IMG/VR virus record: IMGVR_UViG_3300037087_000773
Strand: one strand, 5' to 3'
From: a virus
DNA: 46,145 nucleotides
In this document: piece after piece, positions 30,103-46,145 of the stretch
Layout of the letters: every line of letters begins with the position of its first letter
Position numbering within the stretch: the stretch's first letter is position 1
The notes under the pieces: model-generated
Databases searched by the model: none
Told to the model about the DNA's origin: nothing
What the model saw: the letters and a program-made list of their open reading frames with translations, nothing else
Made by a program: the position numbers and the translations under genes

Positions 30103-30896
30103 TGAAGAAATCTGTCATTTTTAGGGGTAGTGTTTTATATGCCGGTGCTGCAAGTCGAGATATTCCAAAAAATTATCTGAAAGAATCTGTAATTAAATTA
30201 AGAGAATGGTTTGATGGGGAAGTCATTGTTTCAACTTGGAAAGGTCAGGAAGAACATTTAAAAGGAATTGACGGGATAGATAAAGTCGTACTTACTGATG
30301 ATCCCGGTCCGGGACCAGTTCAACACATAAAAAGACAAACATTATCTTATATAAATGGAATAAAGGAATCAACTGGAGATTTATTAATGGTTACACGAAC
30401 TGATATTTCTCATGAAGTAGATCCCTTCCCATATTTATTTGAATTAAAACAAAATGATGGTGCTTTTAGAGTATTTGATGAAAGAATAATAACTGGAAAT
30501 ATGATGACCATCTATCCAGATGGCCCAGAATATCCAAGTCATTTTAGAATTTGTGATTGGTTTCAAATTGGAAAAAGAGAAGATATTTTCAAATGGGGTG
30601 ATATTTTTGGATTAATAAACAATGATATCATTATTGGTAATCCCTGTACGGAACAAATTTGGTCTTTATCTGTATTGAAAAAATACTATGATGATTCAAT
30701 AGACTATCACAACATCGAACCAATAAAAAAATACGCTTGGGATTATTTACTTAATAATTTCAGAATCTTAGACATGAAATCTACCTTGAAAGCTCTAAAT
30801 CATAATTGGAATTTTCAACCTGAATACCTCCCATGTTATATAACAGAAAAAATGTATAATGATGTGTACATTTCAAAATATAAGGAACTAAAATGA
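30102..30896 (+). CDS. hypothetical protein (264 aa)
   Basis: Intact ORF with a 1-nt overlap (TAATG) with the upstream gene. It is weakly similar to 26646..27314. Confidence 0.45.
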   Translation: MKKSVIFRGSVLYAGAASRDIPKNYLKESVIKLREWFDGEVIVSTWKGQEEHLKGIDGIDKVVLTDDPGPGPVQHIKRQTLSYINGIKESTGDLLMVTRTDISHEVDPFPYLFELKQNDGAFRVFDERIITGNMMTIYPDGPEYPSHFRICDWFQIGKREDIFKWGDIFGLINNDIIIGNPCTEQIWSLSVLKKYYDDSIDYHNIEPIKKYAWDYLLNNFRILDMKSTLKALNHNWNFQPEYLPCYITEKMYNDVYISKYKELK

Positions 30897-31822
30897 AAGA
30901 TATACTATTTTTTAACTTCGATTGGGTGCCGAACTCGACCTATATTTTTAAATCATTTGAAAATTGTGGGTATTCATGTGATTGGGTAAATGAACAGTCA
31001 GTGTATGGATTTGTTCCAACAACAGAATATAAAATGATGATTGTTTATTTACATGAAAGGAATTATGCGGTTAATCCTATTTTAGTTCATCCTCTTTTAA
31101 AAAATACATTCATGGTTCAACATGATGATACTGATTTTGAAAATGTACAACAATACTATGTTCGTAAACCAGATATGATAATGCAAAGGGAACTCACCCC
31201 AGATACAGTAAATCCTTATGATTGTCCAGTTTATCCACATCATTTTCCAATTTATACGATTTACAAAGAGGGAATAATTAAAGACATTGACATATCTTTT
31301 ATAGGAACGCCCACAAATGGTAGAAGATTAAGTTTTATTGAACATATTATTAGATTATCAAAGAATGAATTGAAACATTTGAAATGGTATATACTTTATG
31401 AACAAAATAGACAAAGAGATAATTATGTAAATATTGTAAATAGAACCAAAATAGGGTTGAATTATCCGGGGAACTCATATGATACATGGAGAAATTGGGA
31501 ACAAGCAAGTGCGAAAGTTGCGACCATTCAACCGAAATTAAAAGTATTATCCTGTTCTGAGGGTCATATGCCTTATAATGATTATTTGGAAATAAAACTT
31601 GATCATTCTGATCTGGAAGAAAAGATTAATTATTTACTGGAAAATGAAAGATATAAAGAATTAGCTGAGAAATCATTTAATTCATATAACAATTTTCACA
31701 CCCCAGAAAAATGCTTCGAAAAATATTATGAAATGATAATGCGACACGCCCCCGAATCATTGGAAAGAAAACCGATTATTCCATTATCAGCTGAACCATT
31801 TTATAGAAATGTACATAAATAA
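30893..31822 (+). CDS. hypothetical protein (309 aa), possibly a glycan-processing enzyme
   Basis: ATGA overlap with the upstream gene. No confident motif. Confidence 0.45.
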   Translation: MKDILFFNFDWVPNSTYIFKSFENCGYSCDWVNEQSVYGFVPTTEYKMMIVYLHERNYAVNPILVHPLLKNTFMVQHDDTDFENVQQYYVRKPDMIMQRELTPDTVNPYDCPVYPHHFPIYTIYKEGIIKDIDISFIGTPTNGRRLSFIEHIIRLSKNELKHLKWYILYEQNRQRDNYVNIVNRTKIGLNYPGNSYDTWRNWEQASAKVATIQPKLKVLSCSEGHMPYNDYLEIKLDHSDLEEKINYLLENERYKELAEKSFNSYNNFHTPEKCFEKYYEMIMRHAPESLERKPIIPLSAEPFYRNVHK

Positions 31823-31825
31823 AAT

Positions 31826-32035
31826 ATGGAATGTACAATAAAAAAATTGACAGATAATAAAATACCGGGTGTAAATTACCTGATAAGATATCGTGATGGT
31901 AAATATGATAGAACTTTATGGGTTGATACCTTTGATATTGACGAAATTAAAAAAAATTTCTCTAATCTTCCTGATGAAGTTATGTCAGGTATTATAAACT
32001 TAGACAGAAAAATAAAATTGGACGATATATTATGA
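31826..32035 (+). CDS. hypothetical small protein (69 aa)
   Basis: ORF within the operon, with ATGA overlap with the downstream gene. Confidence 0.3.
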   Translation: MECTIKKLTDNKIPGVNYLIRYRDGKYDRTLWVDTFDIDEIKKNFSNLPDEVMSGIINLDRKIKLDDIL

Positions 32036-32484
32036 AATTAATATCACACCGAGGAAATATAAATGGTAAAATTCCAGAAAGAGAGAATTCCCCAGATTAC
32101 ATTTTAGAAGCCTTACAAAAAGGATTTGATGTAGAAGTTGATATTTGGTGGACATGGAAGAATGAATCTTTTGGATGGTATACTGGACATGATGAACCAA
32201 CATATCCAATCATTCTATTTGACTTCTATAAATATTTTAATAGATTGTGGTTTCATTGCAAAAATTTAGATGCTTTATATAAGCTAACTGTATATGACTT
32301 TGAATGTTTTTGGCATCAAAATGATGATTTTACTTTAACCTCAAAAAATCATATATGGACATTTCCGGGGAAACCATTAAGTGAACATTCCGTTTGTGTT
32401 CTACCAGAACAAACTGATCTCTTAAAAGACTATAGCAATTGTTACGGAATATGTAGTGATTACATAGAAGAATATAAGGATTAA
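32032..32484 (+). CDS. short glycerophosphodiester-phosphodiesterase (GDPD)-like protein (150 aa)
   Basis: N-terminus LISHRGNINGKIPERENSPDYILEALQKGFDVEVDIW resembles the GDPD motif block (HRG...EN(T/S)...E-x-D). It is much shorter than canonical GDPDs. Confidence 0.4.
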   Translation: MKLISHRGNINGKIPERENSPDYILEALQKGFDVEVDIWWTWKNESFGWYTGHDEPTYPIILFDFYKYFNRLWFHCKNLDALYKLTVYDFECFWHQNDDFTLTSKNHIWTFPGKPLSEHSVCVLPEQTDLLKDYSNCYGICSDYIEEYKD

Positions 32485-32544
32485 TATTTTTTTATTTCGG
32501 ATATTTATCGTACCTTTGTACTGTCAATCTAAAATCATATCATT

Positions 32545-34653
32545 ATGTCAAAGGAATTAGATAAATATCATCAGAATGAAATTATAAAGTCAACAATCGA
32601 AAAAGAATTAGGAACAGATGGTTTGGCGGTTGGTGATATATTTATAAATCCATCATCTTCAACTATTGCTGTAAAAATCACCAGTATCACATTCAAAGAT
32701 AATAAATATCAAAATCAAGATCCGGCTTATAAAGTAATAATCGGTTATAAAGAAACCGCCAATTATGAATTGACCGATTGGGAAGAAGAAAAACATGAAG
32801 ATTTCTATAACTTTAATTATTTTCATGTTAAAAATTCAATAAGAGTTAAATGTGGTGAAGATATTTCCCAATACTTAGATAAGGCCAAAAAGGTTATGTC
32901 TGGTGAACTCAGTATTGAAACATTAAATGATGATAATACTGATAATAGTCTTAACAGTGAAACATCCATTATTTCAAAAGATTCCAAAACTAATCTCACA
33001 ACGATTCAAAATAGTCTCGAAGAAAAAAAGAAAAATGCTGAATTAATTCAGGCCTTTGTTTCGATTGAAATGGAAAAAAAGAAAAGAGAACTTGAACAGG
33101 TGAGACAAAAGTTAAATGGAGTGATTGAGGTTTTCAAGAAGAAAATAAGTAAAATAATGAGAGTTATCACTACCATTGAATTATATCTTGGTATTGATGA
33201 AGAATTATTTCAAATTCAAGAGGGGGAATTGGCTCCGAAAGAAACTCCAATATCATTCCGTCAGGCTGTTCTTTATATGGACGAAGAAATTGGTCATTGG
33301 AAAAATGGTGGATTGGATTTTACCAACATTGATTGGTTTGATCAATGGCTTGTGAAAGATGAAAATTTTAAGAAATTGTTACCTGAAGAAAAAGGGTTGG
33401 TAGTTTTTAGACCAAGAAGATATGATAAGGATTATGGTAGTGATCCTCACTATAATGCTTCCATGAATCAGGAAAACAAATACAGAACCTATCTTCTTAT
33501 CAGAAACGGAGAATGTCTTTACAGGGTTTATACTGAAAATATTGTAATTCTTCCAAGATTATTTCCTAAACGAGATGAACTACAAAAACTAATGGAAGAA
33601 ATTCAGAAAGAAAACCTGAGATCATGGGATGAAGAAAAAAAGAAGGATAATATTGATGATCTTGTTCATCAATATAAAAAAAGAGCCATACTTTTACAGG
33701 GTCTTGTTGACAGGACTGATGTGTTTCACCCATTACCAGTTGATAAAATCAACATCTTTGATATGTCAAATCTGGAAGGTAAAGTAAATTTCATTTATGA
33801 CGATGAAGCAACATTACCATCTGGTAGATTATCTTTCTGGGATTGGCACAAAGAAATAAACAGTAAAATTGGAAAAGGTAGTAGGGTTTTGATTACTGGA
33901 TTTGATGGGAAAAATGATGAGGTGAAAGATAGAATTTATTATTATACCACCAATTATGTAAGTCCTCCTTCAGTTGGTATTTATGAAGTTGAGGAATATC
34001 TACATAAAGGCACCAAATCTATGAAAAGATCCGACTTTGAAAATCTCAAAGTGGAATGGGATAAAAGAGGAATCAAATATGAAATAACTAATGTCCGTGA
34101 AAAAGTATATCACATAAATTACCAAGAGAGTTCTTTTCCACATAAAGAAAAGCCGGGTTATGTTCCAATTTATGAAGATGAAGTTACGGTAAGGAGCACC
34201 TACATTCATTTAACTATCCTTTATAATCCCGGTGATACGGTTTATGGTCCTTGGGGGACATATGATCCTCATGACCGTAAAAAAAGGATTCGTTTGAGAA
34301 TATATCCAACGGATGATTTCGTTCTGAATTATGACCAAATAAGTCTTGAGGATATCAATTTTTATCTTACGAGTAGAGTTGATAGACCGAATTATTTAAA
34401 AATGTTACCACTTCTTGATGATGTCAAAAACTGGCGTATCGAAGAATTAGAAAATGAAAAGAATTTCGCGAAAATGGTCTACGCTCAAGTGTACCAGAAA
34501 TTGAAGAAACAAACTGAAGAATATATTTATCAGAAGATTTTAGAAGCTATTGATTGGTGGAAATTCAAGAATATGTGGAAAAGACCAATTGATAAAGATG
34601 ATACCAAAGCATTAAGAATGATTACAAACAGAATACTAAATAAGAAAAATTAA
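32545..34653 (+). CDS. hypothetical large protein (702 aa)
   Basis: Long intact ORF after a 60-nt gap. It has a central coiled-coil (EEKKKNAELIQAFVSIEMEKKKRELEQVRQKL). No domain recognised. Confidence 0.5.
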   Translation: MSKELDKYHQNEIIKSTIEKELGTDGLAVGDIFINPSSSTIAVKITSITFKDNKYQNQDPAYKVIIGYKETANYELTDWEEEKHEDFYNFNYFHVKNSIRVKCGEDISQYLDKAKKVMSGELSIETLNDDNTDNSLNSETSIISKDSKTNLTTIQNSLEEKKKNAELIQAFVSIEMEKKKRELEQVRQKLNGVIEVFKKKISKIMRVITTIELYLGIDEELFQIQEGELAPKETPISFRQAVLYMDEEIGHWKNGGLDFTNIDWFDQWLVKDENFKKLLPEEKGLVVFRPRRYDKDYGSDPHYNASMNQENKYRTYLLIRNGECLYRVYTENIVILPRLFPKRDELQKLMEEIQKENLRSWDEEKKKDNIDDLVHQYKKRAILLQGLVDRTDVFHPLPVDKINIFDMSNLEGKVNFIYDDEATLPSGRLSFWDWHKEINSKIGKGSRVLITGFDGKNDEVKDRIYYYTTNYVSPPSVGIYEVEEYLHKGTKSMKRSDFENLKVEWDKRGIKYEITNVREKVYHINYQESSFPHKEKPGYVPIYEDEVTVRSTYIHLTILYNPGDTVYGPWGTYDPHDRKKRIRLRIYPTDDFVLNYDQISLEDINFYLTSRVDRPNYLKMLPLLDDVKNWRIEELENEKNFAKMVYAQVYQKLKKQTEEYIYQKILEAIDWWKFKNMWKRPIDKDDTKALRMITNRILNKKN

Positions 34654-34671
34654 TTTTAAAAATTTAAAGCC

Positions 34672-35247
34672 ATGACAGACAATCACAAAAAGATTATAAA
34701 AGAATTCTTTGATAATAGCTCGTGCTACGGGAATCCTCATTGGGTTTGGGTGTATACTCAAATAAAAGGATTCGGTAAAATAAAAGTCCTTTATAATAAG
34801 GGTGAATTCGGCCAAATCAAAATTGGTGGAGTTGGTAAGATGCTTATTGAAGAACTTGCCGACTATAAACTTGATATACTGACATCTTGGATGCAAGATC
34901 AGCTTGATTTTCTAAATGAGATCAAGCAAATGCCTTTTATCAAGGAACTCAAAAATTTAAATGAAATTAATTTCGATTTATATGATACCAAAACCACTCG
35001 TTTGCGTATTACTTTTACTCACTTTCCATTGGAAAAAAGTGCTAAGAAGCAAACAGGGTTATTAAAAGCGACACTAAAATCTCAGGGTTATGGTGTTGGT
35101 CAAGAGTTTGGTGATATTTATATGGTCAAATACCATACGAATTATAGTCAGATGAATTTGTTCAAACGAATTCTATATAATTTCAAACTTGGTATTGCAC
35201 ACGATATTGTACGACCTAATTCATGTTTCAGTCCAATTCTTTCTTGA
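34672..35247 (+). CDS. hypothetical protein (191 aa)
   Basis: Intact ORF whose 3' end overlaps the convergent minus-strand gene by 27 nt. Confidence 0.45.
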   Translation: MTDNHKKIIKEFFDNSSCYGNPHWVWVYTQIKGFGKIKVLYNKGEFGQIKIGGVGKMLIEELADYKLDILTSWMQDQLDFLNEIKQMPFIKELKNLNEINFDLYDTKTTRLRITFTHFPLEKSAKKQTGLLKATLKSQGYGVGQEFGDIYMVKYHTNYSQMNLFKRILYNFKLGIAHDIVRPNSCFSPILS

Positions 35248-35901
35248 AGATGAATATAAATTATAATCCTGTTTCCTATTTAGATGATAAAATAGTTGTT
35301 CCGATTTGATATTAATACTATCCGCTATTAATTTAAAAGTACTGTCAATACAATGTAATTCTTTGGCGTTTTCGATTAAATAGCAATAATCAAATATATT
35401 GTTTGTCAAACTCCTATTTGGTCTTATTATCGGAATGTTTTTATTTCTTACTTCAGTAATATCGTTGATTACATAATTTCTATCAGCATCGTCATGAATT
35501 AATACATACTCGTTCTCAATAACATTGAATCTTTTAAACAATTCCATTTCCTTATAGTTGTCTCGTTCAATATAAAAATCAGTCCATCTTTTCGTGAAGT
35601 CCAAATTTGACCCCATATAAAACGATCTGTCGAATTTATAATTGAATACATCCAATTTATGAAAACCAACTCTCAAAACATTGCTTTTGTTTGCTATGGA
35701 TTGTTCTACATCATTATCATTAAATATTTTCAAATATTCAATGTTTTTTAGATCTCTGAACATGAAACTGACGGATTCGAAATTATGATGCTTAACAAAA
35801 AGAAAAATTTTGTCATGTGATTTTGAATAATTTCTAACAATGGCATTACAAATTATATGATCACCCAATCCCAAATGATGATAAATGTACAATTCATTCA
35901 T
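35221..35901 (-). CDS. hypothetical protein (226 aa), possibly a glycosyltransferase
   Basis: It is the last gene of the minus-strand glycosyltransferase operon. The N-terminal LYIYHHLGLGDHIICNAI is faintly like GT9/GT-B N-termini, but this is not convincing. Confidence 0.45.
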   Translation of the reverse strand: MNELYIYHHLGLGDHIICNAIVRNYSKSHDKIFLFVKHHNFESVSFMFRDLKNIEYLKIFNDNDVEQSIANKSNVLRVGFHKLDVFNYKFDRSFYMGSNLDFTKRWTDFYIERDNYKEMELFKRFNVIENEYVLIHDDADRNYVINDITEVRNKNIPIIRPNRSLTNNIFDYCYLIENAKELHCIDSTFKLIADSINIKSEQLFYHLNRKQDYNLYSSSRKNWTET

Positions 35902-36599
35902 TAATATCCTAATTCTTTTCTATTTATCCAAAGAGTATATTGTTCTTTCCTATTATCATTTTCATCATAAATTTCCCCAATAAAACGATGATCTTCCATT
36001 TTTGTTGGAAATGGTTTTGAATATGGATACCTATCAAAACAGGAATCATGACAAATGACATCTCCCTCTTTTACAAACCTCTCGTATACGAATTGATTTA
36101 AAAATGGGGTATCAATGTATTTATTGTATAAAACAGTATTTATTGGATTTGTATTACTAACATACAAAATAATATCCTTTTTTAAATTTAAATCCTCAGA
36201 TACGACCAATCCGAATAAACCGGCATACATTTGAACTCCATGATGTGGGTGGTCTCTCATTATATGTAATGTTTTACCAGATTCGATCCATTCATCAACC
36301 GCGTGTTTTTCCCTCATGGATAATCTACTGTCACCATCTCTACTGATAAATCTTTCCACATCTTCTTTCGGTGTGAATCTCCAAAGAACTCCGGGGCCGG
36401 GAAAATTTGTCATATCAAATAATTCACAATTATCAAATTGCCTATATTTTTCTATTATATCACTTGGTACGGAATTATTGTAATAAACATAAACTTTCCA
36501 ATCTGGATAAATAATCTTAGCCAATTCCAAGTTTTTCAAGACCCCAATAGTATACATTGGTTGATTTCCATAAATACTAAAGCTAATTACTTTCTTCAT
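35901..36599 (-). CDS. hypothetical protein (232 aa), possibly a glycosyltransferase
   Basis: N-terminus MKKVISFSIYGNQPMYTIGVLKNLELAKIIYPDWKVYVYYN resembles the start of small GT-A enzymes. The ATG was verified at 36597-36599, preceded on its own strand by the AGGAAT repeat. Confidence 0.45.
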   Translation of the reverse strand: MKKVISFSIYGNQPMYTIGVLKNLELAKIIYPDWKVYVYYNNSVPSDIIEKYRQFDNCELFDMTNFPGPGVLWRFTPKEDVERFISRDGDSRLSMREKHAVDEWIESGKTLHIMRDHPHHGVQMYAGLFGLVVSEDLNLKKDIILYVSNTNPINTVLYNKYIDTPFLNQFVYERFVKEGDVICHDSCFDRYPYSKPFPTKMEDHRFIGEIYDENDNRKEQYTLWINRKELGY

Positions 36600-36620
36600 T
36601 CCTATTCCTATTCCTATTCT
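36598..36620 (-). repeat. (AGGAAT)x3 hexamer tandem repeat abutting a start codon
   Basis: The plus strand reads ATTCCTATTCCTATTCCTATTCT. The minus strand reads AGAATAGGAATAGGAATAGGAATG, with the final ATG being the start of 35901..36599. These AGGA elements are the only SD-like sequences seen upstream of any gene in the window. Confidence 0.6.
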
Positions 36621-37322
36621 TTATTTTAAATATTCTACCGATGGTGGTATATTTTTTGTCCTATAAATGTTTTTATTATTTTCCAGAATCATATATCCAT
36701 AATTATTATCATCTGGATTGGTTCTTTTTTCAACGACAGAACGATTCACGGAATTTATTTCCATTACTCTTACACCTAATAATGTTTTTCTTTTCAACCC
36801 AAATTGCATACATCTTTCTGTCATATCACTATCACACCAATAATATTGAAATTGTGAATCATACATTCCAATTTTTCTAAAAACATCTTTTTTATATATC
36901 CCGAAATTCATACAACCATCAAATAATATCTGTGAATTTTTAAACACACTGTTTTTATCCACCGCGAATTGTTCCAGTGAACCTCTTGTCCAAGGAAACA
37001 CATAATAATCAGAATCATCTATTTCTTGTATGATATCATCCCAATCATTACACAAAAGAACATCATCATTCCATTGAGCTATTAATTCATAAGAGGCATT
37101 CTTTATACCCAAATTCATATAATGCGGATAACTGCTTCTACCACCTACCTCAATTAATTTGATTCTGGGGTGATTTAAGAGCTTCAGGTACTCGATTGTA
37201 CCATCAGTGGAGCCACCGTCCACTAAAATCAGCTCGACCTTTTCTGAGCTCCCTACGGTGTTATTTATGATATGACTTAATAACACCAATCTATTTAATG
37301 TTCCAGTAACTACACTTATCAT
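36621..37322 (-). CDS. glycosyltransferase family 2 (GT-A fold)
   Basis: MISVVTGTLNRLVLLSHIIN...VELILVDGGSTDGTIEYL...QWNDDVLL. It overlaps the upstream gene by ATGA. Confidence 0.65.
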   Translation of the reverse strand: MISVVTGTLNRLVLLSHIINNTVGSSEKVELILVDGGSTDGTIEYLKLLNHPRIKLIEVGGRSSYPHYMNLGIKNASYELIAQWNDDVLLCNDWDDIIQEIDDSDYYVFPWTRGSLEQFAVDKNSVFKNSQILFDGCMNFGIYKKDVFRKIGMYDSQFQYYWCDSDMTERCMQFGLKRKTLLGVRVMEINSVNRSVVEKRTNPDDNNYGYMILENNKNIYRTKNIPPSVEYLK

Positions 37323-37972
37323 AATATACTTTTTATTTTTCCTTTATCAATTTCTTTCTCAACCATCCTATCTCTTTGACTCATAGATTTAATCATATTA
37401 TCATTTTTCTCAGGAACTTGTTTTATTTCGTGAAGATCTCTATGAAGAATCGTAATGGGAACTCTCTCCCATATTCCAAGTTCATTGGCTATCATTAACA
37501 AATATCCATCATAGGATGGACATCCCGTTATTCTTCCTACTGTTTCATAATATTTTCTTGATATATAAGGAAAATAATAATCACCAATATCACCAACTCT
37601 ACCCTCACACGGTTGATGTCTTAATATCCAAGGTTTTTGAGGATCATAATTTTCTAAATATTTATCCCAATTTTTGGTTTTCATTATTGTATCATCGTTT
37701 AATGGTTGAAGCCAATCACCAGTTGCTAATTTGGCCATATCATTTATAAAATTATGAATTTCACCATAACCCAGACCCCTTTCTGAAATAATAATTTTCA
37801 AATTTTGCCAATAAGGTAAATCGTTTAATTTTGAAATTATTTCATCACCAAAATCCAATTTTATTAAAACTTCGATGTCATTAGAACCAGTAGAATTTTC
37901 GAATATAGATTCTATACAAGTTACTAATAAATTATATCCATTTATACTTGGAATTAAAATACTTACTTTCAT
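37319..37972 (-). CDS. GT-A-fold glycosyltransferase-like protein (217 aa)
   Basis: VSILIPSINGYNLLVTCIESIFENS...DIEVLIKLD...WLQPLNDD has the GT2-like N-terminal beta-alpha-beta arrangement and a DxD-like element. Confidence 0.5.
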   Translation of the reverse strand: MKVSILIPSINGYNLLVTCIESIFENSTGSNDIEVLIKLDFGDEIISKLNDLPYWQNLKIIISERGLGYGEIHNFINDMAKLATGDWLQPLNDDTIMKTKNWDKYLENYDPQKPWILRHQPCEGRVGDIGDYYFPYISRKYYETVGRITGCPSYDGYLLMIANELGIWERVPITILHRDLHEIKQVPEKNDNMIKSMSQRDRMVEKEIDKGKIKSIL

Positions 37973-37976
37973 ATAT

Positions 37977-40376
37977 TTATTTTCTTTTTATAAAACTTCC
38001 TCTATAAGAAAATGGTCTCCCATATACTTCGAAATGTTCATTGAGAAATGATATATTATCTCCACTTGTAACTGAACTATCAAAGACCATATTTCCATTA
38101 AATGAAATTACGAATGGAACATTATTTTTCATATATTCTTCACATATTTCTTTCGGTGATTTTGTTGCTGGTTGTTCAACTGGTAATATATCTATTTTCT
38201 TCTTTGGTATATCAGGTAATTGAACTGTCTCTTTAAATCTGGAATTTAATATTGTATAATTCATATCCTTCGTTGTAATATCGGATCTGGTATCTAATAA
38301 TTTCACAAAAAATGGTAAAAACACATAAGCATAAATTTTTGGAAACAATGATTCAATATAAACATCGATTGGTTTTTCTTCTTTTTTACAAGCATCAATA
38401 ATTTTTTGAAACAATCCGTTTTTATTATTCAATATCATAGCAAAGCATCCAGTTGATCTCCAGACTCTATAAATCATAAATCTTACCTGAACAATCGGTG
38501 TTAATAAGGGTGGTATGTCAGAACCCAGATACATTATTTCCCAATCTTCAGGAACAGTATTCATATAATATTCGAATCTACTCTCGAAATCATCACAAAA
38601 AATAACATCATCCTCGAATATTGCTATTTTATTATATTCTTTTTCTATGGCATCTTGTAAAATACTTATATGTGACCTAAGACATCCGATTTCACATTTT
38701 CTCTGGTCATTACCTTCTACCTTTAATTTTTGACCATCAATCCCATTTATAATTTGATATGAACCCAATTTAATTCTACTAAATTGATCAACTATATGAT
38801 TCAGTTTATCTTTTCTTTTAGGAAGATTTATACAATACACATTATCTACAAATCTATCCAAAGCATTATTTTTGATCCTAAGTCTTGGTTTAAATTTTTG
38901 ATATTCAGGACTTTTATAATCTAAGAAATTCACAATGTTTTTGAAGTATTTATTAACCAATTCATACGAAAAAGGTTTTTTATTTTCACTTATATCGGAA
39001 ACAGTATTTATTGTCTTGACGAAAAATGGAGAGAAAATATATATGTTAAAATCTCCCAACATTTTACAATAATATTCGTCAATGGGTTCACTTTCCGATT
39101 CGGTCAGTTCAATAATTTTTTGAAATAATCCACTTTTATTATTTAATATCATGGCAAAAGCCCCATAAACTCCGTTCACTTTATTTATAAAAGGTTTCAT
39201 TTCAAGACCCTGATTAAAATGTGCACCACCAAGATACATTATATCCCAATCACTGGGTACGGCCGCGGCGTAGTATTCAAATCTTTTTTCAAAATCATCA
39301 CAAAATATAATATCATCTTCAAATATAGCTATTCTATCATATCCGTTTTTTAAAGACTCTTTTATAACACCAACATGACTTCTTAAACAAGCTACTTGTG
39401 ATGATCTTACATCTTCTCCCATCTTTTTTCCATCAATGGCATCAAATCTTTTAAATGTTATATTGAATTTATCAAATTCTTTCGTAATATGTTCTAATCT
39501 GTCTTTCCTTCTTTCTAAATTTATAACCCAAGAACAATCAACAAATTTATTTAAAATTGATTTTCCATTCCCATTATTTGGTTTTGAAACGACTTTCGGT
39601 AAAGAAGAATTTGGAACAAATTTATATGGTTCTTTTAGTCTGTTTTTTTCTATTTCTTGATAATCATAATTCTTTTCAGATAAATGATAATGATAAACCT
39701 TAATATCTTTTGATGGATTTAATACCTCATATCCATTTTTTTCGAATTCGTGAGCGAGAACATTATCACAACTTGGAGTCCCCATTTTAAAATCACAATT
39801 TAAATCATTTATTTCACCTAAAAAAGCCCAAGCACTCTGACTGAATTCAACATCAAAATGTTCCGATTTAAATGGGACTAAACTCACTATATTCCAAGTT
39901 GAAAGACAATATACTGTACCAAATTTAATGTTATTCAAAATCAATTCAATATTATCACCATCAAAATAACAATCAGAATTCAATAATATGTTCAAATCGC
40001 TATTTTTTGTATTAAAATTAATAATATTAAACATATCCCTGAAAGTTGGTTGTAAATTGATCATATTGATTTTTACAATTTTTTTATCCAACTTTTCAGA
40101 ATATTCATCAGAACACACTAAAAATATTTTGTCTATCTTCTTATTTGAAATCAATTTATTCAAACAATATTGTATTTCCTTATTTCTTTTTTCTGTTTTA
40201 GATTCGAAATAATTAAAATACACATTCACTTTTGATTTTTCATGAGTATGTTTTTCTGGTAATATGATTCTATTTTCTTCTTTTAAATAATATCCATCCC
40301 CATGACTATCATTAAAAAATATTGAACCATTATCAAATAGATAATAAGATGTATCTTTATTGGTTGATTTATTCAT
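37977..40376 (-). CDS. multidomain glycosyltransferase with two tandem GT25 (LgtB/Lic2A-type) domains (799 aa)
   Basis: Repeat 1: CSWVINLERRKDRLEHITKEF...FKRFDAIDG...ACLRSHVGVIKESLKNGYDRIAIFEDDIIFCDDFEKRF...DWDIMYLGG. Repeat 2: VYCINLPKRKDKLNHIVDQF...INGIDG...GCLRSHISILQDAIEKEYNKIAIFEDDVIFCDDFESRF...DWEIMYLG. Both align to Neisseria LgtB (ISL...ERR.HI...F.FFDA...ACFMSH..LW...IAVFEDDV). The N-terminal roughly 270 aa are unassigned. Confidence 0.75.
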   Translation of the reverse strand: MNKSTNKDTSYYLFDNGSIFFNDSHGDGYYLKEENRIILPEKHTHEKSKVNVYFNYFESKTEKRNKEIQYCLNKLISNKKIDKIFLVCSDEYSEKLDKKIVKINMINLQPTFRDMFNIINFNTKNSDLNILLNSDCYFDGDNIELILNNIKFGTVYCLSTWNIVSLVPFKSEHFDVEFSQSAWAFLGEINDLNCDFKMGTPSCDNVLAHEFEKNGYEVLNPSKDIKVYHYHLSEKNYDYQEIEKNRLKEPYKFVPNSSLPKVVSKPNNGNGKSILNKFVDCSWVINLERRKDRLEHITKEFDKFNITFKRFDAIDGKKMGEDVRSSQVACLRSHVGVIKESLKNGYDRIAIFEDDIIFCDDFEKRFEYYAAAVPSDWDIMYLGGAHFNQGLEMKPFINKVNGVYGAFAMILNNKSGLFQKIIELTESESEPIDEYYCKMLGDFNIYIFSPFFVKTINTVSDISENKKPFSYELVNKYFKNIVNFLDYKSPEYQKFKPRLRIKNNALDRFVDNVYCINLPKRKDKLNHIVDQFSRIKLGSYQIINGIDGQKLKVEGNDQRKCEIGCLRSHISILQDAIEKEYNKIAIFEDDVIFCDDFESRFEYYMNTVPEDWEIMYLGSDIPPLLTPIVQVRFMIYRVWRSTGCFAMILNNKNGLFQKIIDACKKEEKPIDVYIESLFPKIYAYVFLPFFVKLLDTRSDITTKDMNYTILNSRFKETVQLPDIPKKKIDILPVEQPATKSPKEICEEYMKNNVPFVISFNGNMVFDSSVTSGDNISFLNEHFEVYGRPFSYRGSFIKRK

Positions 40377-41214
40377 AATAATCTTTCAAATAATTTTCAA
40401 ACATATAATCTTCAGCGATTAGATATTTCTTAGCTAACTCGAAATTTTCCTTAACACTCTCCAATTTATCTTTATACATATTCAAACTAATACTGTTTAA
40501 AATATATTTCATTTCGTGTATATCATTGAAACATATCATTCCATTTGGATTAAAAAATTTCCATATAGACGGACATCCCCAATAAATAGGAATCGTTCCT
40601 GTCATAAAGCAATCGATTAATTTCTCAGTAAAATAATAATCTTGTTTGGTGTTTTCAATAACCATAGAAAAGGCGTAATCTTTCAGTCCATATATTTTGT
40701 TTGGTAAAGGAAAATATCCCCTACCAAAAGTATCAATATTATTTTTAAACAATGTTACTATTTGATGTCTTAGTGCCTGTCCTGTTGTATATTTCTTATC
40801 AGAAAAGATAGCCGACAATAATTTGGTTTTATCATAAATCATTTGGTCTTTTGGTAATATCCAGCACCCAGCTGTTGGTGAAAATTTAAAAATAGGACTC
40901 TGATCAAGATGTTCTTTATTATTAGTGAGAATGAAATCAAAATTTCTATAATTATCAGATTTTGAAATCCACTCATGCTGTGGTTTGGTTATAGCTGGAG
41001 ATTCTAACATCCAACCCACTCTAACTTTTGGCCAAGTTAACTCTCCTTTTTCATTTCTGAGAAAAATATGATCCAATGAAGTATCAGTATAAACCGCCAA
41101 TTTATCATCTCTGGTTATTGGTGTTCTATCCCATGTAATATATTTTGATTCTTGATTATCCGTACTATATTTAGCATGTACGAAATGAAGATCAACTAAC
41201 TTAATGTTGTGCAT
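40369..41214 (-). CDS. alpha-1,3/4-fucosyltransferase, GT10 (Helicobacter FutA-like)
   Basis: YAFSMVIENTKQDYYFTEKLIDCFMTGTIPIYWGCPSIWKFFNPNGMICFNDI matches H. pylori FutA YKFSLCFENSQGYGYVTEKIIDAYFSHTIPIYWGSPSVAKDFNPKSFVNVHDF almost motif-for-motif. Confidence 0.8.
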   Translation of the reverse strand: MHNIKLVDLHFVHAKYSTDNQESKYITWDRTPITRDDKLAVYTDTSLDHIFLRNEKGELTWPKVRVGWMLESPAITKPQHEWISKSDNYRNFDFILTNNKEHLDQSPIFKFSPTAGCWILPKDQMIYDKTKLLSAIFSDKKYTTGQALRHQIVTLFKNNIDTFGRGYFPLPNKIYGLKDYAFSMVIENTKQDYYFTEKLIDCFMTGTIPIYWGCPSIWKFFNPNGMICFNDIHEMKYILNSISLNMYKDKLESVKENFELAKKYLIAEDYMFENYLKDYYE

Positions 41215-41303
41215 AAAAATCTTGTTTGTTTTTATATATTGTGGATAGTGATGTCAAAACCAATCACAATAATTAATATATAGTTAAAAAGAAACAAAAA
41301 GTT

Positions 41304-42275
41304 ATGTCTAAAATAAAAAATTTCAAAGAATTTTTGAAAGAAGAAGTATATGTTCAACCACAACCGGCTGTTCAACAGACACAACCACCTGTTCAAAATT
41401 CTGTTCAACCAACTCAATCTCAACCAGAAGCTAAGAAATTAGATCCAACAAAAGTGAACAAGAAGATTGATTTTACCTACTTAAACAAAGATGCTAATGT
41501 AGATAAAATAAGACAAATTTGTGAAACAGCTAAAAGTCCTGAAAATTTGAATTATATTTTCGGGGTTGTTGTTGGACCAGAATTTGTTTCGGAAACAAAA
41601 AAATATTTGGAAGATAGTGGAATAAAGACAATAACTGTCATTTCTTATCCTGATGGAGATGATAAGAATTCAATAAAAATGAAAGCATTACAAAAAGCTA
41701 TTTCAGAAGGTGCCGAAGAAGTTAATGTTGTTATGGATTATAAAAAATTAACAGATGCATTAATCGAGACTGATAAGGAAAAACAAGAAAAGATGATACA
41801 AACTATCCAAACAGACATAAGATCTTTGGTGGAGTATTGTAAAGAAAGAAGTACAATAATAAAAATAATCATTGAAATGGAAGCTTTGTCTGATACTAAA
41901 ACCATTTCAAAGGCCGTTGAAATTTGTAAAAAAACAAATGTTGATTTCATAACAACATCAACTGGTATGTATACAAGAAATACTAATTATACTTTCGAAA
42001 AGAAAATGAAAGATGTAACTGAAGTAATTGTACCTATGATTGAAGGAATGGATGATATAAATATAAATGTTTGTGGTGGAGTAAATGGAAGTGACAAATT
42101 AATGTTGTGTTTAAGTAATAATAAAATTCAAAGAATTTCAAGTTCCATGACGCCACAAACCTTACTAAATAAACAATCTCCACCACCACAAACTCAAATA
42201 CAATCACCTGATTCACCAGCTCAAACAACACAATCTCAGCCTATACAACCACAATCTCAACCACCTCAACAATAA
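41304..42275 (+). CDS. protein with N-terminal KNFKEFLKEE leader and P/Q-rich low-complexity termini (323 aa)
   Basis: MSKIKNFKEFLKEEVYVQPQPAVQQTQPPVQNSVQPTQSQPE... The C-terminus is QSPPPQTQIQSPDSPAQTTQSQPIQPQSQPPQQ. Confidence 0.5.
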   Translation: MSKIKNFKEFLKEEVYVQPQPAVQQTQPPVQNSVQPTQSQPEAKKLDPTKVNKKIDFTYLNKDANVDKIRQICETAKSPENLNYIFGVVVGPEFVSETKKYLEDSGIKTITVISYPDGDDKNSIKMKALQKAISEGAEEVNVVMDYKKLTDALIETDKEKQEKMIQTIQTDIRSLVEYCKERSTIIKIIIEMEALSDTKTISKAVEICKKTNVDFITTSTGMYTRNTNYTFEKKMKDVTEVIVPMIEGMDDININVCGGVNGSDKLMLCLSNNKIQRISSSMTPQTLLNKQSPPPQTQIQSPDSPAQTTQSQPIQPQSQPPQQ

Positions 42276-42286
42276 AGCACAAAAAA

Positions 42287-42314
42287 ACCCAGAAAAATCT
42301 GGGTTTTTGTTTTT
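42287..42314. terminator. bidirectional intrinsic-terminator-like hairpin
   Basis: ACCCAGA-AAAA-TCTGGGT (7-bp stem, 42287-42304), preceded by an A-run (42281-42287) and followed by TTTTGTTTTT. It sits between the convergent genes 41304..42275(+) and 42313..42783(-). Confidence 0.6.
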
Positions 42315-42783
42315 ACATAGTTGGTAAAAGATATCCAAATTCCTGATATATATCTTTACAAAGTTGAATTAATTTTTCTCTGTGCTCTTTTTCAGTATCA
42401 CTCAATTTACCTGCGATTGTATCCATATTTTTATAACAATCTTGTAATTCCTCGTAAGTATTCTCGAACCTGCAATGGCTCATGTTCGTTTCATTAATAA
42501 CACTTTCACTGACCTCAATTGATGGGAATTCTTTTTTTACGGCTCTTTTAACAGAATTTTTCAATGAGTCTAAATCACCATCATACCAAGGTGGTACACT
42601 TTTATATTGTTCAACTCTTGCTAATGCGTTTCTTCCTTGACCCAAATCATTTATTGTGAAATGGTCTTTCTTTACACCTTTCACCTCTTTTACTTTTGGA
42701 TGTTCAGCTGGAAAAATACATTTTCCCCTGTTCCTATATTTAGGAATCCTTTTTTCATTTACAAATTCATTAAATTTTTTCAT
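42313..42783 (-). CDS. small protein with N-terminal MKKFNEFVNE leader (156 aa)
   Basis: MKKFNEFVNEKRIPK... Its C-terminal region (EKEHREKLIQLCKDIYQEF) is paralogous to the next gene (EREYYYKLVDLCREFL). Confidence 0.5.
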   Translation of the reverse strand: MKKFNEFVNEKRIPKYRNRGKCIFPAEHPKVKEVKGVKKDHFTINDLGQGRNALARVEQYKSVPPWYDGDLDSLKNSVKRAVKKEFPSIEVSESVINETNMSHCRFENTYEELQDCYKNMDTIAGKLSDTEKEHREKLIQLCKDIYQEFGYLLPTM

Positions 42784-42791
42784 TTTATCAA

Positions 42792-43061
42792 TTATAATTT
42801 TAAAGATGGATGTGATCTTGTAGCTAAAAACTCTCTACAAAGATCCACTAACTTATAATAATATTCTCGTTCTCTTTTTGATAAATCAACACCAGTTCCA
42901 CTCAAATTTTTGAATGATTTTTTCGAATCATCAATTCCATTTGACATGATATCAAAACAATCCGATAATTTATTATAAGCTTCTTCGAAACCAACATTCA
43001 ATCCGTATTTATCACCACTCAGATTGAGTTCTTCATTAATAAATTCATTAAACTTTTTCAT
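42792..43061 (-). CDS. small protein with N-terminal MKKFNEFINE leader (89 aa)
   Basis: MKKFNEFINEELNLSG... It is a paralog of 42313..42783. Confidence 0.5.
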   Translation of the reverse strand: MKKFNEFINEELNLSGDKYGLNVGFEEAYNKLSDCFDIMSNGIDDSKKSFKNLSGTGVDLSKREREYYYKLVDLCREFLATRSHPSLKL

Positions 43062-43389
43062 TTAATCTTTTCTTTAATTGTTCAATCTGTTCATTAAGTT
43101 TAGTAAAATTAAAAGGACCAGCAACTAAGATTGTTTTAATACTTTCCAGAGTTACAATTTCTTCTTTCATTTTTTCTTTCTGAACAAAATTGTATAATTT
43201 ATCAGTGAGTTCATCAACACCAGTTAAGGATATCTCAGCATCTTCAATTTGGGACATTTTTTCACCACTTGGTTCAATATTGGCTTTTACTGTTTCCTTA
43301 ATCAATGAATAAATTTCCTGTTTTGTTTTATCAAAGAACTTTACTGGTTCTTGAACAGATTCATTTTGTCTATCTGTGAATTTTTCCAT
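43048..43389 (-). CDS. small coiled-coil protein with a degenerate leader (MEKFTDRQNE)
   Basis: K-F-x4-N-E spacing matches the KFNEFINE leader. It overlaps the next gene by 14 nt. Confidence 0.45.
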   Translation of the reverse strand: MEKFTDRQNESVQEPVKFFDKTKQEIYSLIKETVKANIEPSGEKMSQIEDAEISLTGVDELTDKLYNFVQKEKMKEEIVTLESIKTILVAGPFNFTKLNEQIEQLKKRLNEKV

Positions 43390-43408
43390 TAGATTTTTTA
43401 GTTATTTT

Positions 43409-43702
43409 TTATGCTTTCGGACCAGTTTCAGAACTTTTTTCTTCTGTCTTTTTCTTTTCCTTTTTCTCTTTCTTTATAACACAATTTTCAACCATGTGGT
43501 ATATTTTCTGAAGTCTTTTTTTACCACATTTCTTTATGTTTTCTTCAATAAACTTTATCTGTCCGGCTGAATCACCTTCCAAATGATGTTCTAAAACAGC
43601 AAATCCACCAACTTCTGTTCTTTTGGTTGATTTTTGCTTTGGCTGTAAATTCTGATATTCAGTGAATTTCAATAAATTTTGTAATTTACTATCTTTTGCC
43701 AT
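43409..43702 (-). CDS. hypothetical basic protein (97 aa)
   Basis: The ATG was verified at 43700-43702. The tail is Lys-rich (KKEKKEKKKTEEK). It has a partial leader-like LLKFTEYQNL at residues 10-19. Confidence 0.4.
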   Translation of the reverse strand: MAKDSKLQNLLKFTEYQNLQPKQKSTKRTEVGGFAVLEHHLEGDSAGQIKFIEENIKKCGKKRLQKIYHMVENCVIKKEKKEKKKTEEKSSETGPKA

Positions 43703-43753
43703 TGTATTCGTGATTATTTTTTATGTATATATTAATATTAAAAATTCATTTTA

Positions 43754-44341
43754 TTAATTGTATGAGGCTAAATCATTAGCCATTTCTTCTGCACAATCAA
43801 AATCAGAGGGTGAATCATATTCATCCCATCTATAAGAATCATTATCCATTAATCTTTTGGATAAATAATTCCTCAATTTTTTATCTGATTGTACTTGATC
43901 CAGTGCCATATCCATCAATTCACTATGATTATAGGGTTCGCCATTTCTATCATCCAATCCTGAGGTCGCTATACTTTGACATATTTCCTTGTATTCTTTT
44001 TCGGATATCATTTTTTCTTTTGATAACTTGGGTGTTTTTACTGGTTTCGTTTTTTCCTTATATTCATTCTTCAATTTTGCTGGCATAATGTATTCATAAT
44101 GTCTTGGATTATCTAATACGATTTCTCTTACCCCATTTCCATCACATTGTTTTAAAGTTGGTGTTTTTCCCGGTGTAATTACCACAAAATCATATTCTTC
44201 TTTCCAAGATGGATGTTTCAATGTTACAACCTCATCCTTTGTATACTCATAATCTTTAATTATATCGTCATTTACTTTATAATCATATTCAAATTTCTTT
44301 AATTCGAATATAAAACTTTGATAATCTTTTATATTTTTCAT
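43754..44341 (-). CDS. hypothetical protein (195 aa)
   Basis: Intact ORF with LKKFEYDY near the N-terminus. No domain recognised. Confidence 0.45.
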   Translation of the reverse strand: MKNIKDYQSFIFELKKFEYDYKVNDDIIKDYEYTKDEVVTLKHPSWKEEYDFVVITPGKTPTLKQCDGNGVREIVLDNPRHYEYIMPAKLKNEYKEKTKPVKTPKLSKEKMISEKEYKEICQSIATSGLDDRNGEPYNHSELMDMALDQVQSDKKLRNYLSKRLMDNDSYRWDEYDSPSDFDCAEEMANDLASYN

Positions 44342-44353
44342 GTAAATATATAT

Positions 44354-45109
44354 TTATTTTTTAAATTCATTTCCTAATTTCAAAGCTTCTTCCTCGGTCA
44401 TGTTTACCATATCATTCTTTGTTAGTTTATCAGGTCTTTTACTCCATTCCACCTTAGCTGCTATATTATGGGCATTATCATACTTCATCCCTTTCTCTTT
44501 CATTAATGTTCTTTCAACATACTCATGTATGAGGACAAATGGGATTTCCTTATCTTTCAATCCATCTTCAATCCAAATTTCATTATTAGGAATCCATTTA
44601 TAAACATAGCCGTGCCCGCCCTCCATAAAATCCGTCTTATATTTATCTCTAACCATTTCTGCATCAACCAGCCAAACCGTCAAATCATCATCTTTTATTT
44701 TACAATATTCTTTCTTATAAATTTTTTCATGACCTTTTTCATCCGTCTTTTCTGGATTCTTATCTCTTTCTTCTCTATATTTCTTATCCATTTTTTCGGC
44801 TTTATGATAAGCATCCCACTTTTCCATCCCATTATCAATCAACTTTAACTTATACAATTCGATATGAATTAGAATATTTCTTTCATCTGTTTTAACATCA
44901 TCCTCAATCCAGATCTCATTTTTTGGAATAAGATTAGGAAAATATGGATATGATGACGATAATCCGAATTCTTCATCACCTTTCGTTAAATCTCTCACTT
45001 TCTCTCCATTTACTGTATAAACTTTATATTTACCGTATTGTTCCACAAGTTCTTTTCCAACATCCTCATTTTTCTTTTCATTAATAAATTCAACAAAGGT
45101 CTTGATCAT
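44354..45109 (-). CDS. protein with N-terminal MIKTFVEFINE leader and an internal tandem-duplicated domain
   Basis: The ORF-track start at 45148 is a TTG. The first ATG is at 45109 and gives MIKTFVEFINEKKNEDV. Two repeats are present: NLIPKNEIWIEDDVKTDERNILIHIELY...GMEKWDAYHKA and KWIPNNEIWIEDGLKDKEIPFVLIHEYV...GMKYDNAHNIA. Confidence 0.5.
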   Translation of the reverse strand: MIKTFVEFINEKKNEDVGKELVEQYGKYKVYTVNGEKVRDLTKGDEEFGLSSSYPYFPNLIPKNEIWIEDDVKTDERNILIHIELYKLKLIDNGMEKWDAYHKAEKMDKKYREERDKNPEKTDEKGHEKIYKKEYCKIKDDDLTVWLVDAEMVRDKYKTDFMEGGHGYVYKWIPNNEIWIEDGLKDKEIPFVLIHEYVERTLMKEKGMKYDNAHNIAAKVEWSKRPDKLTKNDMVNMTEEEALKLGNEFKK

Positions 45110-45204
45110 GTAGTAATTTTTTCTTTTATATATTAATTTTTTGACCAAAAGAAAACCCAGTGGCGAGCTATGACCGAAGTCACAACAGGTCCTAAGCTGT
45201 TTCT

Positions 45205-45478: not shown

Positions 45479-45488
45479 CGTAAAAATA

Positions 45489-46142: not shown

Positions 46143-46145
46143 TAT

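Follow-up and report, generated by a model that had tools for sequence, protein, structure and literature searches.

The DNA stretch examined here, 46,145 nucleotides of the IMG/VR virus record IMGVR_UViG_3300037087_000773 (hereafter the window), carries six consecutive genes of assigned or presumed glycosyltransferase type at positions 35221–41214 of the minus strand. They encode a compact glycosyltransferase of family 10 (GT10), a three-module protein with two family 25 (GT25) domains, two GT2 enzymes, and two small proteins outside Pfam families. We propose that this operon builds a hetero-oligosaccharide on a lipid-A-core or lipooligosaccharide (LOS)-type glycolipid of the host, thereby altering the cell surface, and we assign this reading a probability of about 0.42. 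The carrier is probably a huge bacteriophage of ~736 kb with a Bacteroidetes host, a relative of the phage genome LR756501 and known from metagenome assemblies only. The operon is a further example of the glycan clusters already known from large phages, its particulars being the huge-phage lineage, the fusion of an N-terminal domain (termed X) with two different GT25 domains (X-GT25a-GT25b), and three families that Pfam does not cover.

Six genes and their products

The interval 35221–41214 consists of exactly six ATG-started open reading frames (ORFs), co-directional and tightly packed on the minus strand. In the direction of transcription, they are the GT10 gene (40369–41214, 281 aa), the X-GT25-GT25 gene (37977–40376, 799 aa), two GT2 genes (37319–37972, 217 aa; 36621–37322, 233 aa), a gene of a family with neither a Pfam nor a PDB relative (35901–36599, 232 aa), and a GT9-like GT-B gene (35221–35901, 226 aa). 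Consecutive genes are spaced by −8, +4, −4, +21, and −1 nt. The sole sizeable non-coding gap upstream of the six is an 89-bp stretch at 41215–41303, between the GT10 gene and a divergent DeoC-like gene on the plus strand, and we infer that it holds the operon promoter. Co-transcription as one operon is likely because of the tight gaps, this upstream region, and the lack of any terminator-like site on the operon strand inside 35221–41214. A sigma-70 consensus scan of the operon returned 59 sites against 54 expected from shuffles, which is not better than shuffled sequence, and the promoter and terminator scan of the operon as a whole did not rise above the shuffled expectation. The G+C content of 28% is the same in the operon and in the remainder of the window. 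In the 25 nt that precede the start codons (within 35221–41239), the sequence is A/T-rich for all six genes and a full AGGAGG Shine-Dalgarno sequence is absent, which would weakly fit a Bacteroidetes-type host.

The 281-aa product of the first gene is a GT10-family glycosyltransferase with a compact GT-B fold, as indicated by Pfam, PDB matches, and an AlphaFold2 (AF2) model. The GT10 C-terminal domain PF00852 matches residues 128–242 with 30.0 bits against a gathering cut-off of 23.9. The best PDB match is the Helicobacter pylori alpha-1,3-fucosyltransferase (HpFucT, FutA), found as 2NZW with a single-sequence phmmer E-value of 3.5e-12 and also as 5ZOI. Arabidopsis FucTA/FUT11 and mango FucT13 are matched as well, and all PDB sequence matches at E<1e-6 are GT10 enzymes. 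The phmmer alignment places residues 169–241 on HpFucT 221–293 with ~38% identity over 73 residues, whereas a profile of 31 GT10-family sequences (E-value 3e-14) lengthened the match to HpFucT 221–325 and added human FUT9. An initial annotation of the window, made from the sequence alone, had matched the protein to FutA across the catalytic C-terminal block, and the searches bear this out. In the PDB sequence alignment the block FSMVIENTKQDYYFTEKLIDCFMTGTIPIYWG pairs with FNLCFENTQGYGYVTEKIIDAYFSHTIPIYWG of HpFucT, and the alpha-1,3-fucosyltransferase motif FxxxFENxxxxxYxTEK is present, with FSMVIENTKQDYYFTEK pairing with FNLCFENTQGYGYVTEK. Since the motif block aligns, counterparts of HpFucT N240, Y246, E249, and K250 are present.

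Across the 31 family members, E71, R149, N188, E197, and K198 are invariant and Y194 is nearly so. E71 lies in the sequence WMLESP (WxLESP in the family), which the profile alignment sets on MNLESP of FUT9; we take the glutamate of the LESP motif to be the general base, E95 in HpFucT. The invariant R149 (GQALRHQI) was compared with R195, the donor-phosphate arginine of HpFucT. It sits near EHARVKYY of FUT9, where a three-residue gap in the HMMER alignment shifts the arginines by two columns. The AF2 model (pLDDT 93.7, pTM 0.89) retrieved HpFucT in its apo, GDP, and GDP-fucose forms, Arabidopsis FUT11, and human FUT9 at Foldseek ranks 1–10. The GT-B fold, the FxxxxENxxxxxYxTEK block, and the LESP-type glutamate are shared with HpFucT (2NZW, 2NZY, 5ZOI), but the identity to HpFucT is ~18–20% overall in the structural alignment, and the window protein is shorter (281 aa versus constructs of 371–420 aa) and has no homopolymer tract. 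It ends at residue 281, and the HpFucT alignment runs no further than about residue 325 in chains of 371 and 420 aa, so that the C-terminal extension of HpFucT is not present. That extension comprises heptad repeats and membrane-anchor helices. The N-terminal half, which would hold the acceptor, has little sequence similarity to solved GT10 enzymes; FUT9 alone aligns there, weakly. From its sequence and model, the protein appears to be a catalytically competent, compact member of GT10. It is probably a GDP-L-fucose-dependent alpha-1,3/4-fucosyltransferase, the donor being argued from genomic association. A fucosyltransferase family of Bacteroidetes O-glycosylation (PMC8698959) was considered as the source of the gene and rejected, that family being of GT2 type.

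The 799-aa protein had been described as a tandem-GT25 enzyme. Two complete GT25 domains with the FEDD motif are indeed present, but a third, N-terminal domain of ~270 aa had been missed, so that the chain has three modules. PF01755 matches in two stretches with 108.7 bits against a cut-off of 24. Domain a spans aa 277–497 (38886–39548), domain b spans aa 508–735 (38172–38855), and a C-terminal tail of 64 aa follows (37980–38171), all on the minus strand. Over 218 residues the two domains share 44% identity, and FEDD, the DXD motif, is kept in both. The best solved relative of domain b is the GT25 domain of human COLGALT1 (E-value 6e-7), with weaker matches to Mimivirus R655 and bacterial GT25 proteins. 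PF01755 with its DXD motif is common to COLGALT1 and to LgtB, Lic2A, and LpsA of Neisseria and Haemophilus. COLGALT1 is also a two-domain enzyme. The window protein differs from all of these in that two diverged GT25 paralogues stand behind a third domain.

A domain-wise neighbour-joining tree, of the kind that the initial annotation had suggested, was built with the GT25 domains of 46 related proteins and placed domains a and b in two separate clades. Domain a groups with the single GT25 domain of the LR756501 protein (P0131, type a only), and domain b belongs to a clade with proteins that have type b only (P0124–P0127, P0135). The tandem therefore joins two long-separated paralogues and does not represent a recent duplication. 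Both types occur together in four protein clusters of the tree (P0121, which is the window protein, P0122, P0123, and P0128). Two GT25 domains in one protein are thus uncommon among the sequences compared, as the initial annotation had supposed, yet not unique.

The N-terminal X domain (aa 1–270; 39567–40376, minus strand) has no family match above cut-off and is presumably a further glycosyltransferase module. Its invariant motifs are NSDC, a SQDAW-type motif, GCDN, and H-x-H (YHYH). Pfam at E<=10 gave only sub-threshold noise, the best being Stealth_CR2 with an E-value of 0.027, and the profile search of PDB sequences found no relative. The domain is a separable module, duplicated in P0134, P0137, and P0130 and found beside GT47, Nucleotid_trans, and GT25 domains in multi-glycosyltransferase proteins; in relatives of 1100–1380 aa, GT47 (exostosin) and Nucleotid_trans domains precede it. 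A homologue in Synechococcus phage S-SKS1 lies beside a nucleotide-sugar epimerase.

The remaining genes had been assigned to GT2/GT-A enzymes, which holds for two of the four. The 217-aa protein (37319–37972, minus strand) matches PF00535 with 27.9 bits and the 233-aa protein (36621–37322, minus strand) with 35.3 bits, both against a cut-off of 23.3. The former also matches PHROG 14945 'glycosyltransferase' (5e-7) and has no orthologue in the LR756501 cluster, where its sole match is another GT2 protein at 31% identity. The latter matches the PDB entry 6p61 'Glycosyltransferase' (E-value 5e-4) and has an orthologue with 52% identity at the equivalent place in LR756501. The assignment does not hold for the last two genes, of which one encodes a GT9-like GT-B protein and the other a protein with no detectable relative of known fold.

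The latter, the 232-aa protein (35901–36599, minus strand), is a presumed glycosyltransferase on account of its invariant R-D-x-D-S-R and H-x-x-R-D-H-x-x-H motifs and its context, an assignment that we offer as a guess. It has no match in Pfam (E<=10), NCBIfam, PHROG, or PDB sequences, and the PDB profile searches with it and with the X domain yielded nothing or, in one case, an insignificant match to a CRISPR-associated protein. Its family has at least 319 metagenomic relatives at E<=0.001, and its orthologue in LR756501 is 56% identical. The 226-aa protein (35221–35901, minus strand) likewise has no match in Pfam, even at E<=10, or in NCBIfam, and no PDB sequence match with a 26-sequence profile. 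Its predicted structure is confident (pLDDT 94.2) and has a GT9 (heptosyltransferase)-type GT-B fold, and therefore the protein would be a short GT-B rather than a GT-A enzyme. The closest solved folds include TibC, a cytoplasmic protein heptosyltransferase. Compared with the GT9 heptosyltransferases WaaC, WaaF, and TibC, it is ~100 residues shorter, 8–13% identical, and without a Pfam GT9 match. The family comprises 1722 representatives at 50% clustering, without Pfam coverage, and its relatives are fused to GT47, HAD phosphatase, TPR, and a weak methyltransferase-like region. The 232- and 226-aa families, whose genes stand side by side and overlap by 1 nt in the window, are naturally fused in P0394 (457 aa) and P0273 (390 aa), which speaks for a joint action. 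Profile-profile comparisons among the alignments of the X domain, the 232-aa, 226-aa, GT10, and GT25 families gave probabilities below 1% throughout.

Fucose supply and the pairing of GT10 with GT25

The GDP-mannose 4,6-dehydratase (GMD) gene at 4699–5724 (minus strand) lies 35 kb from the operon inside the same glycan island. The initial annotation held that it provides the first step of the fucose pathway, and judged by its sequence the product is a genuine GMD, with 498 bits for the NCBIfam gmd equivalog against a cut-off of 415 and a Pfam E-value of 3.4e-134. GMD catalyses the first step to GDP-fucose and other GDP-6-deoxyhexoses. A GDP-L-fucose synthase (GMER, Fcl) gene had not been noticed in the window, and we did not find one there by tblastn with Fcl (E<=10) or by Pfam, nor within 10 kb beyond either end, where the flanks were examined for epimerases; with window ORFs of 100 aa or longer, GMD is the only Epimerase-family Pfam match. 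The query, E. coli Fcl, was good enough, since it recovered genes annotated 'GDP-L-fucose synthase' in cyanophages. The relative LR756501 encodes all of GMD, GMER (Fcl), and GT10. There, the orthologue of the window GMD (74.5% identity) maps to 296.5 kb and the GT10 gene to 336.7 kb, a distance of ~40 kb that parallels the arrangement in the window; the Fcl homologue, at 702 kb, shares 51.6% identity with the E. coli protein. A metagenome scan with the LR756501 Fcl protein gave one locus at 93% identity (L173) and no other above 64% among the 80 matches listed, none of which bears a contig name of the source's type (Ga03348xx). A fucose donor for the GT10 enzyme is plausible on the basis of the window GMD, the Fcl-like genes near its relatives, and the gene set of LR756501. 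The initial annotation had named an absent pathway combined with a degenerate fucosyltransferase as contradicting its reading. This combination is not what we observe, as the GMD is genuine and the GT10 protein keeps the donor-binding Asn, Tyr, Glu, and Lys and the putative catalytic Glu. Around the GMD gene (4699–10632), we also noticed an NDP-hexose C-methyltransferase-like gene (7439–8698; Methyltransf_14, 3e-44; 77% identity in LR756501) and a 638-aa FkbM-domain protein, which suggests that GDP-4-keto-6-deoxymannose may feed a C-methylated or otherwise altered 6-deoxyhexose besides fucose.

Relatives of the GT10 gene were found at more than 550 IMG/VR loci. For the best 80 of these loci, with GT10 relatives at 38–57% identity to the window protein, we counted the genes within 8 kb of GT10. 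Thirty of the 80 have a GT25 gene on the same strand, mostly within 1.5 kb. GMD is present in 27 (30 without the identity and length filter), a full-length Fcl-like gene in 29, GMD with an Fcl-like gene in 19, and all three of GMD, Fcl-like, and GT25 genes in 10. A natural GT10-GT25 fusion also exists in a single metagenomic chain of 1398 aa (P0171). The linkage in 30 of 80 loci and this fusion make GT10-GT25 a conserved viral module. They support the view, also taken in the initial annotation, that GT10 and GT25 work together. With the linkage to GMD and GMER-like genes, they also favour a functional fucosylation module.

The same pairing underlies the idea that the operon makes Gal-beta-1,4-[Fuc-alpha-1,3]-GlcNAc (Lewis-x) epitopes imitating a host, as in the lipopolysaccharide (LPS) of H. 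pylori. It is established that H. pylori pairs a GT25-type beta-1,4-galactosyltransferase with a GT10 fucosyltransferase, and both the HpFucT catalytic block, at ~38% identity over 73 residues, and the recurrent linkage up to the P0171 fusion agree with this idea. The carrier, however, is a huge bacterial phage from metagenomes with no animal host to mimic, and related clusters occur in cultured cyanophages. GT25 members transfer Gal or Glc to diverse acceptors, from LOS heptose to collagen hydroxylysine. Acceptor specificity and linkage are not readable from GT10 or GT25 membership, which gives no prediction of N-acetyllactosamine (LacNAc) synthesis, and we identified no GlcNAc transferase. 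The GT10 protein lacks the C-terminal region of HpFucT and resembles it by only ~18–20% overall, and homopolymer tracts for phase variation are missing, with no G or C run of at least 6 and no A or T run of at least 9 in 35221–41303. We therefore do not retain the designations 'host-mimicry type' and 'Lewis-x toolkit' of the initial annotation. Lewis-x mimicry is very unlikely, and the idea should not be carried on without biochemistry.

The carrier phage and its glycan island

Exact copies of the GT10 and GMD proteins of the window are encoded by a 736,551-bp contig (ERZ27254251 k141_203136) and by a 222-kb scaffold of another sample. Sixteen window ORFs have homologues at 31–78% identity (at least 35% for 15 of them) in a similar order at 292–342 kb of LR756501, a stretch with 30% G+C. 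They include GMD, the C-methyltransferase, NusG, DeoC, GT10, the X-GT25 protein, one GT2, and the 232- and 226-aa proteins. LR756501 is the 735-kb genome of an 'uncultured phage', curated and circularised by Al-Shayeb et al. (2020; PMC7162821). The largest genomes of that study, LR756501 among them, were placed in the Mahaphage clade, and replication in Bacteroidetes was predicted for them. A megablast of window positions 30000–46145 against GenBank phages gave no match, and relatives are visible at the protein level only.

The window lacks a phage hallmark but has genes for NusG, TnpB, and other housekeeping-like products, and some relatives lie on contigs binned as Saccharibacteria, Gracilibacteria, or Gammaproteobacteria metagenome-assembled genomes (MAGs). 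One could accordingly regard it as part of a low-G+C bacterial or symbiont chromosome and the operon as a cellular locus for LPS or capsule. When 20 window proteins, including the operon and its neighbours, were searched against PHROG, the matches were to glycosyltransferases, to one family of unknown function, and, insignificantly, to a head protease. For the ten ORFs without assignment that were scanned for hallmarks, the family of unknown function was the sole match. As the window has no hallmark gene, its viral origin rests on the synteny with LR756501 and on the distribution of the GT10 family. Both speak against a chromosome: the window is syntenic with a curated, circularised phage genome, and the nearest GT10 relatives (40–57% identity) are on the IMG/VR contigs, whereas GT10 proteins of isolate bacterial genomes, mostly Rhodobacteraceae, reach 30–36% identity at most and the few closer 'bacterial' matches are short MAG contigs. 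Most window ORFs are, moreover, ORFans, and Rfam and tRNA scans of the window found nothing, with no ribosomal or tRNA genes. A cellular origin is extremely improbable, the least probable of the explanations that we considered. The closest 'bacterial' relatives of the GT10 and X-domain proteins lie on contigs binned to the candidate phyla radiation (L008, L010, L011, and L023, Saccharibacteria MAGs; P0134, 'Candidatus Gracilibacteria bacterium'), which may be mis-binned phage contigs or a hint of other hosts.

Judged by its gene content, the entire window is a ~45-kb glycan-biosynthesis island. Besides GMD and the C-methyltransferase-like gene, it contains four FkbM-type methyltransferase genes (among them 8716–10632, for the 638-aa protein; 28441–29403; 29410–30102), a GT4-like gene (12033–13004), two fusions of HAD phosphatase with sugar-1-phosphate nucleotidyltransferase (25032–26399 and 27317–28444), a WavE gene (30102–30896), and a gene for a 1615-aa protein with GT2-type and methyltransferase domains (13646–18493, plus strand). 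The 1615-aa protein comprises Glyco_tranf_2_4, two Methyltransf_24 stretches, a TylF-like region, and GT2 domains in an architecture that recalls chlorovirus A064R, and it is partly kept in LR756501 (51% identity over 486 aa). Three further genes of the island were noticed on the side. The minus strand at 1–2424 encodes part of an 807-aa vault-protein-like product (full gene at L168 13301–15724; MVP_shoulder 6e-26, Vault_3 2e-11, weak Band_7/SPFH) with no PHROG match. A TnpB or IS605 OrfB-type protein (OrfB_IS605 2e-22, Cas12f1-like TNB 1e-22, and a helix-turn-helix) is encoded at 19963–21207 on the plus strand. A NusG-like transcription factor (NusG 7.5e-18, KOW) lies at 22770–23309 on the minus strand, its LR756501 orthologue being 56% identical.

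Nucleotide-metabolism genes also lie near the operon, namely NUDIX, a weak deoxyribosyltransferase match, and DeoC. The DeoC-like aldolase gene (41304–42275, plus strand) scores 113.5 for TIGR00126, just below the cut-off of 117.3; its product has proline- and glutamine-rich low-complexity tails at both ends, and a bidirectional terminator-like hairpin with an 11-bp stem follows directly (42283–42308). Such neighbours would agree with DNA hypermodification, in which the transferases glycosylate modified phage bases against restriction, as in T-even phages and other viruses. Attachment of multi-sugar glycans to DNA by phage transferases has been described (Pyle 2024, as cited in PMC12619734), and the authors of the S-SCSM2R genome raised this function for its cluster (PMC12801897). 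On the other hand, a set of up to eight transferase modules with GMD, several sugar methyltransferases, and NDP-sugar enzymes suggests a complex oligosaccharide. We noticed no gene for a hydroxymethylase or another enzyme of base modification in the window, and no DNA glucosyltransferase is among the Pfam, PHROG, and PDB matches of the operon proteins; the T4-type DNA glucosyltransferases are not known to belong to GT10, GT25, or GT9. We consider this explanation highly improbable; neither it nor Lewis-x mimicry has any specific support.

Host envelope or virion as the proposed site of the glycan

We envisage that up to eight soluble transferase modules (GT10, X, two GT25, two GT2, the DxD-type 232-aa protein, and the GT9-like 226-aa protein) would add sugars in turn to a single acceptor in the cytoplasm of the infected cell. 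A family or fold has been assigned to six of these modules. The GT25 modules would attach beta-linked hexoses, Gal or Glc, and GT10 would next attach an alpha-linked L-fucose or a close GDP-6-deoxyhexose, with the GDP-sugar made via the phage GMD and the epimerase/reductase step contributed by a phage gene elsewhere in the genome or by the host. Other genes of the island might serve the supply of NDP-sugars (the HAD-nucleotidyltransferase fusions) and the methylation of the product (the FkbM-family and C-methyltransferases). The favoured acceptor, the lipid-A-core or LOS-type glycolipid of the host, would lie at the inner face of the membrane, host machinery would export the product, and the changed cell surface might block superinfection or re-adsorption.

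No ORF of the window has more than one hydrophobic segment, and therefore the window has no flippase, polymerase, or phosphoglycosyl transferase (Wzx, Wzy, WecA, WbaP) and no ABC transporter. For the assembly of LPS core or LOS, soluble or peripheral transferases together with MsbA and Lpt of the host suffice, and the GT25, GT9, and WavE families are best known from this assembly. The host glycolipid is slightly favoured as the target because the pathway needs only soluble transferases and host export, and because GT25, the GT9-like protein, and WavE belong to core or LOS families. A host-surface function has also been proposed for the clusters of jumbo cyanophages (PMC7824862; PMC12801897).

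Several points weigh against a host glycolipid. The same content of soluble multi-domain transferases, many methyltransferases, and no export genes would, by analogy with chloroviruses, mimiviruses, and mycobacteriophages, suit the glycosylation of virion proteins equally well, and the GT25-like Mimivirus R655 is among the PDB matches. Neither the X domain nor the 232-aa protein has a fold assignment. GMER was found neither in the window nor in its 10-kb flanks, the 20 window proteins searched against PHROG include no phage hallmark, and the host is taken from a relative with ~50% protein identity. We know of no experiment that ties such phage clusters to an altered host surface, and the published reading is a hypothesis.

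Virion glycosylation fits the data almost as well. The same enzymes could build a fucosylated, methylated oligosaccharide on capsid, tail, or fibre proteins in the cytoplasm, which would shield the particle or help it to attach. All transferases of the island are soluble, and an initiating phosphoglycosyl transferase, flippase, polymerase, and transporter are all missing. The 799-aa X-GT25-GT25 and 1615-aa proteins resemble the chlorovirus proteins A064R and A111/114R, the latter predicted to have Gal-, Xyl-, and Fuc-transferase domains (PMC9614988). Chloroviruses likewise place transferase and methyltransferase modules on one soluble chain and make their own nucleotide sugars, a likeness in architecture for which no sequence relationship is claimed; their target is the capsid glycoprotein, whereas the host here is a bacterium. 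The weak match of GT25 type to Mimivirus R655 and the presence of TibC among the closest folds of the 226-aa protein point in the same direction, and glycosylation of the capsid and tail tube is documented in mycobacteriophages (Freeman 2023, as cited in PMC12619734). In contrast, the PHROG searches of 20 window proteins identified no structural gene beside the operon, no acceptor protein or sequon is known, and GT25, GT9, and WavE are classically glycolipid enzymes. We regard the virion as a possible, tentative alternative to the host glycolipid. The bolder idea that a huge phage decorates its own virion proteins with a fucosylated, methylated glycan by means of a self-sufficient, giant-virus-like machine, comprising its own nucleotide sugars and soluble multi-domain transferases with a widespread viral GT10-GT25-GMD-GMER module and three non-Pfam families, is likewise tentative and less likely than not.

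Comparable clusters exist in cultured large phages. Iyer et al. (PMC7824862) described jumbo-phage 'LPS/capsular polysaccharide' clusters with paralogous transferases, nucleotidyltransferases, HAD phosphatases, and O-methyltransferases, and proposed that they stop the attachment of rival phages. The jumbo cyanophages P-SSM2, S-SSM7, S-SKS1, S-SRM01, and S-SCSM2R likewise have islands with several transferase families, GMD, GMER, HAD phosphatases, nucleotidyltransferases, and methyltransferases. S-SCSM2R has 13 transferases, including a 267-aa GT10, a 269-aa GT25, GT2, and GT11, for which modification of the host surface or DNA protection was suggested (PMC12801897). Its GT10 gene, annotated 'glycosyltransferase family 10 protein', lies among genes for epimerases, GT11, GT1, and GT2. 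The window GT10 is 32–39% identical to its relatives in cultured T4-like cyanophages (S-T4, S-SM2, S-SSM7, S-SRM01, S-SCSM2R). The present operon differs from those islands in belonging to another lineage, the 736-kb Mahaphage type with probably a Bacteroidetes host, at low sequence identity, and in having the three-module transferase fusion and three families without Pfam coverage. A wcaG RNA motif is annotated ahead of the sugar genes in S-SCSM2R (L253 3942–4039), whereas the window has neither wcaG nor any other Rfam element. Among the papers searched, none mentions both a fucosyltransferase and a jumbo phage.

Large phages thus recurrently carry glycan-building islands, and the largest phage lineage shares a conserved island of this type of ~45 kb. 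Members of the compact GT10 family occur widely in viral contigs (more than 550 IMG/VR loci), with GT25, GMD, and GMER-like genes as repeated neighbours, which defines a small, testable module. Associated with it are three families without Pfam coverage, namely the X domain, the 232-aa DxD family, and the 226-aa GT9-like family. Should the virion be the target, autonomous viral glycosylation, described for giant eukaryotic viruses and mycobacteriophages, would reach the largest known phages as well. If the target is the host envelope, the island would represent a lytic-phage counterpart of seroconversion.

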